Shown here in pieces: positions 23,004 to 23,407 of a DNA stretch of 64,000 nucleotides. The translations under genes and the position numbers were made by a program. Positions within the stretch are counted from its first letter, which is position 1; every line of letters starts with the position of its first letter. This stretch comes from Escherichia phage Pu-Krd-SF1: sequence record PQ249395, one strand, 5' to 3'. Under the pieces are notes generated by a model, which was not told the DNA's origin, made no database searches, and was given only the letters and a program-made list of their open reading frames with translations.

Positions 23004-23369
23004 ATGTATACCGGCAAAAAGTATGAGCTTGTTCCAAGACTTATTGATACATTTATTAATTATCGCCCACGTTCCAATTCATCAATAGTTAAAATTATTC
23101 AAGAAAATGGCGGATGGTTTGAAGTTAAAGAAGCTTTCTTTGTTGATGGATTTAGAGTAATAAAACACATTGAATGCGCAAATGGAAAGCATTTTTACTT
23201 TAACGTTTGTGAAGACGAATTTCATTGTTTTCGTGAGTATAAAGAACCGACTTCTGAAGAAGATGAAATCGAAGACAAGGTTTCTGGCGTAACAAAAATT
23301 CACTGCATTGTAGATGAAAACAATGTAGATGAAATCATTGAACTTTTGCGAAAAACTTTCAAAAAGTAG
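23004..23369 (+). CDS. hypothetical protein (121 aa)
   Basis: ORF with GAGGAAAA SD. Confidence 0.4.
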   Translation: MYTGKKYELVPRLIDTFINYRPRSNSSIVKIIQENGGWFEVKEAFFVDGFRVIKHIECANGKHFYFNVCEDEFHCFREYKEPTSEEDEIEDKVSGVTKIHCIVDENNVDEIIELLRKTFKK

Positions 23370-23407
23370 TTTACGGTAGGGTAATAGTGTGATACTATTA
23401 CCCTATC
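23369..23407 (+). promoter_or_regulatory. early promoter with -10 embedded in a 12-14-bp inverted repeat
   Basis: GTTTAC then GGTAGGGTAATAGT - GTGAT - ACTATTACCCTATC; TACTAT -10 in 3' arm. Confidence 0.5.

Follow-up and report, generated by a model that had tools for sequence, protein, structure and literature searches.

Early promoters enclosed in hairpins of the promoter early stem-loop type in a T4-like Escherichia phage

Promoter early stem-loops (PeSLs) of T4-like phages were described by Arbiol et al. 2010 (PMC2839356) and Comeau et al. 2014 (PMC4122927). [quoted passage not shown] The commonest positions are between the boxes and overlapping the -10. Promoter activity was shown, and one stem-loop gave a terminator-like drop in lacZ expression. 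The elements at the internal-protein loci of the T-even phages were T4 early promoters with A/T-rich stem-loops (PMC2839356). The second study extends PeSLs to T4/PST, with the consensus TTTACW-N17-TAYWAT (PMC4122927).

Two other arrangements are close to this one. In the T4 genes e, soc, 49 and I-TevI, the promoter lies in the 5' half of a hairpin, and long transcripts fold while short ones do not (PMC3014915). Moreover, a terminator followed by a promoter is a common junction between T4 early units.

The DNA analysed here (the window, i.e. the whole stretch of 64,000 nucleotides) belongs to a Tequatrovirus (T4-like), with a map orientation opposite to that of T4. The 1.2-kb piece around the finding was 100% identical to Escherichia phages Pu-Krd-SF5, Pu-Krd-SF6 and Pu-Krd-SF7 and 95–98% identical to many Tequatrovirus genomes. 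Based on the T4 record and tblastn, the three sites are located in the gaps between frd.2 and frd.1 (site 1, 23369), cd.3 and cd.2 (site 2, 36207) and 30.8 and 30.7 (site 3, 39772). The flanking genes are small and all on the + strand, the gaps measure 57–68 bp and all three sites have T4 counterparts.

The three sites are very probably promoter/hairpin composites of the PeSL type. As in PeSLs, a stable stem-loop overlapping the -10 is combined with an early promoter of the sigma-70 type, preceded by A/T-rich sequence. The elements lie between the stop codon of a small gene and the next ribosome site, among non-essential genes with nearby indels. Early promoter (predicted), stem-loop and intergenic position with nearby indels were found at each of the three sites, and all three fit the T4/PST consensus (PMC4122927). 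There are two differences. Compared with the GGGG/CCCC stems of RB49/phi1, those of sites 1–3 are richer in A/U, and the PST stem-loops are drawn just upstream of the promoter, according to a figure legend of PMC4122927, which corresponds to our class A (see the following section). As the anatomy of PeSLs has already been published, the finding is real but already known in kind.

The likeness to e, soc, 49 and I-TevI is that the promoter lies inside the hairpin and that short transcripts lack the 5' arm. However, those genes have late or middle promoters and a 3' arm that hides the Shine-Dalgarno or AUG, whereas the ribosome site stays open at sites 1–3. With the terminator-then-promoter junctions, represented in the window by 22611–22629 before the promoter at 22660 and by 39330–39351 before the one at 39381, the sites share a hairpin that would end the upstream message beside the next promoter. 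In contrast to these, the hairpins of sites 1–3 lack a T-run, have a lower G/C content and overlap with the promoter.

Promoters and hairpins in the window

A sequence-only reading of this DNA had reported inverted repeats at early promoters at 23369, 36207 and 39772. All three repeats were present there, and T4-type early-promoter motifs were found at each site. Site 2 is annotated in T4: a note at the cd.3/cd.2 gap of the T4 record names it as the early promoter Pe133295. The common layout is GTTTAC, a spacer of 16–17 nt, TGn and TACTAT or TATTAT, preceded by an A/T-rich region. This matches the UP/-35/TGn/-10 layout of T4 early promoters (PMC2988021). The 5' arm of the hairpin lies in the spacer and the 3' arm extends from the -10 as far as about +3/+5, i.e. 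the -10 is enclosed by the repeat. The hairpins begin 6–12 nt past the stop codon of the upstream gene.

The promoter of site 1 (23369–23398, + strand) lies 5' of frd.1 and comprises GTTTAC (23369–23374), TGA (23390–23392) and the -10 TACTAT (23393–23398). The G of GTTTAC is the final base of the frd.2 stop codon TAG, the spacer is 17 nt when counted from TTTACG and the predicted start is at ~23405. The hairpin (23375–23407, + strand) has arms at 23375–23389 and 23393–23407, with 15 pairs, a UGA loop and the -10 within the 3' arm. Its core of 12 pairs (23377–88 with 23394–405) is perfect, and site 1 is the longest perfect hairpin-type inverted repeat of the whole 64-kb window. An outer extension of 7 bp (23365–71 with 23408–14) brings the total to ~22 bp. 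The Shine-Dalgarno GAGGAG and ATG of frd.1 follow at 23415–23429 (+ strand), with the RegB motif GGAG inside.

At site 2, the promoter lies 5' of cd.2 (36207–36236, + strand), with GTTTAC at 36207–12, TGA at 36228–30, the -10 TATTAT at 36231–36 and a predicted start at ~36243. The hairpin (36218–36245, + strand) is formed by GGTAGAGTTGTG / TATAACTCTACC, with arms at 36218–36229 and 36234–36245 around the loop AUAU. Nine of its 12 pairs are Watson-Crick (GGTAGAGTT/AACTCTACC); the other three are inner pairs, two of which are G.U.

The promoter of site 3 (39772–39800, + strand), 5' of gene 30.7, has GTTTAC at 39772–77, a spacer of 16 nt, TGA at 39792–94, the -10 TATTAT at 39795–39800 and a predicted start at ~39807. 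Its hairpin, GGTACAGG / CCTGTACC (39781–39811, + strand; arms 39781–39788 and 39804–39811), has eight perfect pairs plus inner A-U pairs, and an outer extension pairs GTTTA with TAAAC.

RNA segments beginning shortly before the -35 element and ending at the ATG were folded and compared with 200 dinucleotide shuffles. The folding energies were -26.8, -18.1 and -20.1 kcal/mol for sites 1, 2 and 3 (z = -6.8, -4.5 and -4.8), and none of the 200 shuffles was as stable. The DNA folds were weaker (-10.4, -7.5 and -8.4 kcal/mol) and still non-random, with z of about -4.4 to -5.1.

The predicted start, 7 nt past the -10, is 2–4 nt short of where the 3' arm ends at all three sites. Hence, RNA initiated at the promoter would lack the 5' arm. 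A terminator scan from the next upstream promoter to each site (22660, 33532 and 39381 to sites 1, 2 and 3) showed no terminator-like stretch, and read-through RNA containing the hairpin is therefore expected. The proposal that the hairpin is confined to read-through RNA thus agreed with the folding, with the -10 enclosed and the 5' arm left out of the primary transcript.

The combination of promoter and hairpin is wider than first reported. Six of the 11 GTTTAC..TGnTAnnnT promoters on the same strand have a stem (z <= -4.4) that spans the -10. These divide into two kinds (classes B and C), beside which there is a third arrangement (class A). Class A has the ordinary order, a G/C-rich hairpin with T-run and then the promoter (5466, 22660 and 39381). 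Class B comprises sites 1–3, with a 3' arm that reaches as far as the start site. The spacer is paired with the downstream Shine-Dalgarno in class C, which comprises 2331 (2331–2390), 33532 (33532–33590), 46620 (46620–46682) and, as a weaker case, 39381 (39381–39439). The unpaired probability of the class C Shine-Dalgarno was 0.23–0.38 in read-through RNA vs 0.46–0.93 in primary RNA. In these folding models, class C matches the e/soc/49/I-TevI type, though with early promoters, and its members are the predicted early-promoter counterparts of the T4 e/soc/49 translational lock.

Cassettes are also repeated in direct orientation, 13–17 kb apart. The segments 33531–33584 and 46619–46672 are identical at 53 of 54 positions, and a terminator-plus-promoter cassette at 5407–5545 recurs at 22602–22740 (112/143 identical). 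By analogy, such near-identical cassettes are the type of repeat that the PeSL model uses for cassette exchange.

Other structured elements were observed in the window. Repeated hairpins of the form A-rich / GGGACC...GGTCCC / T-rich, which resemble bidirectional terminators, occur at 44146–44183, 46966–47005, 62084–62115 and 63441–63474. Two matches to group I introns (26206–26436 and 31118–31358) scored 42.5 and 36 bits, less than the Rfam gathering threshold. Both are in the td / nrdB regions beside endonuclease-sized ORFs, as in T4.

Conservation of the pairing

Homologous gaps were compared across four genera. They came from T4, RB32, Lv5cm and G8-like phages, from several Mosigviruses (RB69, G2469, moha, NHEP29, p000v and others), from the Dhakaviruses JS10 and CLB_P2 and from the Gaprivervirus SP18. 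IMG/VR and metagenome contigs added few homologues, and the diversity came mostly from GenBank phage records.

The hairpin was retained in homologues from all four genera. Conservation of the pairing potential in related phages had been set beforehand as the test of the reading; the potential was conserved, and compensatory changes were found at sites 1 and 2.

In all homologues of site 1, the -10 lies within a hairpin, built from four different stems in three registers (TAGGGTAATAGT/ACTATTACCCTA, AGGCTATGGTA/TACTATAGCCT, GATAGGGCTA/TAGCCCTATC and ATGGGGCTAT/ATGGTCCCAT). Within the register of the window, one pair is U-A here, C-G in another sequence of the comparison (L053) and C.A, the intermediate state, in T4. 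In this register, shuffles paired as well as the real alignment. Two A.C states were seen at the outer edge of the stem (T4 and sequence L036).

At site 2, 96% of the cells were paired across nine distinct sequences, vs 22–64% with the partner slid. Three compensatory pairs were found in Dhakavirus, where GGTAGAGTT/AACTCTACC becomes GGTAGGACT/AGTCCTACC; this is a single lineage. All one-sided changes gave G.U. SP18 has a short hairpin entirely within the spacer instead.

The stem of site 3 (GGTACAGG/CCTGTACC) was invariant over the four genera, and the only stem variants were G.U. Loop, leader and upstream gene varied, i.e. the stem was conserved without covariation. As this stem is invariant, a sequence-specific reader would fit too.

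With the sites pooled, one-sided transitions in the stem core gave nine sense-strand G.U and no A.C, although the covariation statistics are modest and the stem-core events are not all independent. This asymmetry suggests selection on the sense RNA, unlike that expected of a cruciform or of a protein site in duplex DNA. The comparison points to pairing under RNA-level selection at three T4 loci, and the cruciform role suggested earlier is disfavoured by the sense-strand G.U pattern.

The family that had been proposed from the ACGGTAG arm start of sites 1 and 2 did not hold up. The relatives of site 1 have ACAGTAG, ACATCAG or ACAACAG, and the heptamer common to both sites is due to one A-to-G change in this phage. 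The mutual likeness of sites 1–3 is mainly the general T4 early-promoter consensus.

Possible roles of the hairpins

No U-tract follows any of the three hairpins or their homologues in the four genera. The tails after the hairpins (CAACTACTG, CAAACAAAT and GCAATTAAA) are A/C-rich. A canonical intrinsic terminator was rejected, as the T-run is absent here and in the homologues; hairpins that lack a U-tract make poor intrinsic terminators. The terminator scan passed over sites 1–3 and flagged the true terminators at 22611 and 39330 in the same window. That the hairpins are true co-transcriptional terminators, attenuators or pause sites for the read-through polymerase, as proposed for PeSLs, appears doubtful to us. 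The PeSL stem-loop of phage phi1 cut lacZ expression like rrnB T1 (PMC2839356), and the site 1 hairpin is annotated as a putative terminator in two Mosigvirus records, one crediting ARNOLD. However, the stem-loop assayed with the reporter was G/C-rich (RB49/phi1 type), while the hairpins here are A/U-richer, and the window has T-run terminators at its other junctions named above. An antisense terminator was likewise rejected: T-runs on the minus strand are not beside the hairpins, and the G.U pattern points to the sense strand instead. Rfam covariance models gave no match at the three sites (E <= 1), and a literature search found no usable T4 transcript-end mapping for them.

The accessibility of the ribosome sites was computed with 200- and 400-nt upstream context. 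The unpaired probabilities from Shine-Dalgarno to AUG in read-through and primary RNA, respectively, were 0.61 and 0.61 at site 1, 0.52–0.68 and 0.73 at site 2 and 0.74–0.79 and 0.47 at site 3. As the accessibility was similar in both RNAs, Shine-Dalgarno sequestration was rejected at these sites. This also bears on a translational insulation by the hairpin, which would lie inside the footprint of the 30S subunit, at about -13 to -50 relative to the AUG, and lower initiation on read-through RNA. The downstream gene would then be translated mainly from its own early promoter RNA, following the logic of T4 e, soc, 49 and I-TevI, a classical precedent (PMC3014915). The sister promoters at 2331, 33532, 39381 and 46620 have the same architecture with a spacer that pairs with the Shine-Dalgarno, and promoter 2331 and site 1 have a common downstream sequence and different spacers. 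Nevertheless, insulation seems unlikely at sites 1–3: Shine-Dalgarno and AUG are equally open in both RNAs, and the hairpin ends 8–16 nt short of the Shine-Dalgarno.

Processing by RNase III is a very improbable explanation. The outer extensions would give bulged helices of ~21–22 bp, like the T7 early-mRNA sites, composed of 7+15 bp at site 1, 4+5+12 at site 2 and 6+2+9+5 at site 3. However, helices of 21–22 bp form only with bulges, and the outer parts are weak and not conserved, being absent from T4 and other homologues. RNase III is also absent from a review of T4 RNA decay (PMC3014915).

Several insertions were observed around the sites. T4, RB32 and several contigs have an extra ORF, not annotated in the T4 record, that separates the site 1 hairpin from frd.1. 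It encodes a hydrophobic peptide of 22 residues (MFAPYIMAAVMLVCLYLLIKAC) and has its own GGAG ribosome site. In T4 (L002) it lies at ~26020–26090 on the minus strand, and it is missing here between 23412 and 23413. In many Tequatroviruses and Dhakaviruses, an RB32ORF214c-like gene of ~520 bp follows straight after the site 2 hairpin, before cd.2. Its insertion point corresponds to 36246–36265, it occupies 4736–5263 in one of the sequences compared (L027) and one record labels a gene within this match as a putative homing endonuclease.

Such events would be expected if the repeats acted at the DNA level, as a hot spot of recombination and modular shuffling (PeSL model) or as a cruciform or template-switch site, with the RNA hairpin incidental. 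This has been argued in the PeSL papers (PMC2839356, PMC4122927). Indels and gene swaps adjoin the elements: the 22-codon ORF of T4, RB32ORF214c and, in other phages, a different upstream gene joined at the -35 of site 1. Gene 30.8 is 36% and gene 30.7 93% identical on either side of site 3, and three Mosigvirus isolates have the loop of the hairpin in exactly the opposite orientation (see the following section). We nevertheless regard a DNA-level role as improbable. One-sided changes that are all G.U, together with the compensatory pairs, speak for selection on the sense RNA; a cruciform would be weakened by G.T mismatches, and the arms are only 8–14 bp long. A conserved promoter gives homology for recombination even without a hairpin. 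Moreover, the edges of the indel between T4 and the window at site 1 are two similar ribosome-site sequences, not the hairpin. The gene frd.2 is a mosaic (~23150–23238). Compared with T4, the first two thirds of the gene have diverged strongly (amino-acid identity of 66% over the whole product), whereas the final ~130 nt hardly differ, and neither does the promoter; the junction falls inside the gene at ~23238. With indel edges at ribosome-site repeats and a junction inside frd.2, the hairpin is not clearly the crossover point.

The missing U-tract and the open ribosome-binding site led us to infer a post-transcriptional action. We tentatively favour a role of the hairpin as a 3' boundary and stability element for the upstream message, a reading based on the sequence comparisons. 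Processing, stability and pausing are not separated by sequence alone.

As a 3' boundary, the element would work as follows. A strong host sigma-70 promoter would start a new transcript for the downstream gene. As the gaps are only 57–68 bp, the free positions of the promoter (the spacer, and the -10 to about +3) would have been shaped into mutual complementarity. Polymerases from the next upstream early promoter would read through, and their RNA would fold into the hairpin of 12–15 bp, while RNA from the local promoter would have none. RNase E or RegB may then cut the A-rich leader or the GGAG ribosome site, after which the hairpin would block 3'-to-5' exonucleases. The GGAG ribosome sites of frd.1 and 30.7 are RegB-type candidate targets (GGAG and then an A-rich stretch), and RegB, RNase E and 3' exonucleases belong to the described framework of T4 decay (PMC3014915). 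The hairpin would also conceal the A/U-rich promoter RNA, and some attenuation of read-through is possible. The usual T4 pair of terminator hairpin and promoter would thus be compressed into the promoter itself.

Loop inversion and meaning

Small inversions associated with hairpins are known in the non-coding DNA of chloroplasts. The site 1 loop of Mosigvirus resembles these, as it occurs in both orientations among relatives. The difference is that the inverted segment of the phage holds the promoter TGn and most of the -10. In most Mosigvirus genomes, the hairpin reads GATAGGGCTA-TGTTATAG-TAGCCCTATC. In moha (Denmark), KAW3E185 (Germany) and pEB20 (Korea), it reads GATAGGGCTA-CTATAACA-TAGCCCTATC, i.e. 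the 8-nt loop is exactly reverse-complemented and TGn and most of the -10 are flipped. The inverted loop was found in L029 (moha, 3594–3621), L033 and L034, which were compared with L028, L030 and L032. Inverted loops were counted from full-length matches only; flipping the loop of a perfect hairpin turns it into its own reverse complement.

Two flanking haplotypes carry the inverted alleles, and both are found with the normal loop as well. Both orientations on two haplotypes suggest recurrence or recombination. At site 2, a note in the T4 record (133300–133313) states that the 14-nt loop was inverted in an earlier T4 sequence. Among 50,697 phage records, there were no inverted-loop variants of the window-type sites 1, 2 or 3. 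It is conceivable, though improbable, that the short inverted repeats make the TGn/-10 cassette an invertible segment that needs no recombinase. If flips recur in populations, they would yield heritable strong and weak variants of an early promoter with the RNA hairpin kept intact. The polymorphism of the loop is possibly a small, new observation on the mutation of such repeats.

As a discovery, the composite elements carry little weight. Cassettes of promoter and stem-loop are established in T4-like genomes, and a start inside the hairpin is classical T4 biology. What is added here is that these hairpins are neither canonical terminators nor masks of the ribosome site, and that their RNA pairing appears to be held over four genera. 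In about half of the early promoters of the window, the spacer is the arm of a hairpin, and its partner is the start region or the ribosome site. Such hairpins would be a tidy case of regulatory information placed in the 'free' positions of a promoter.
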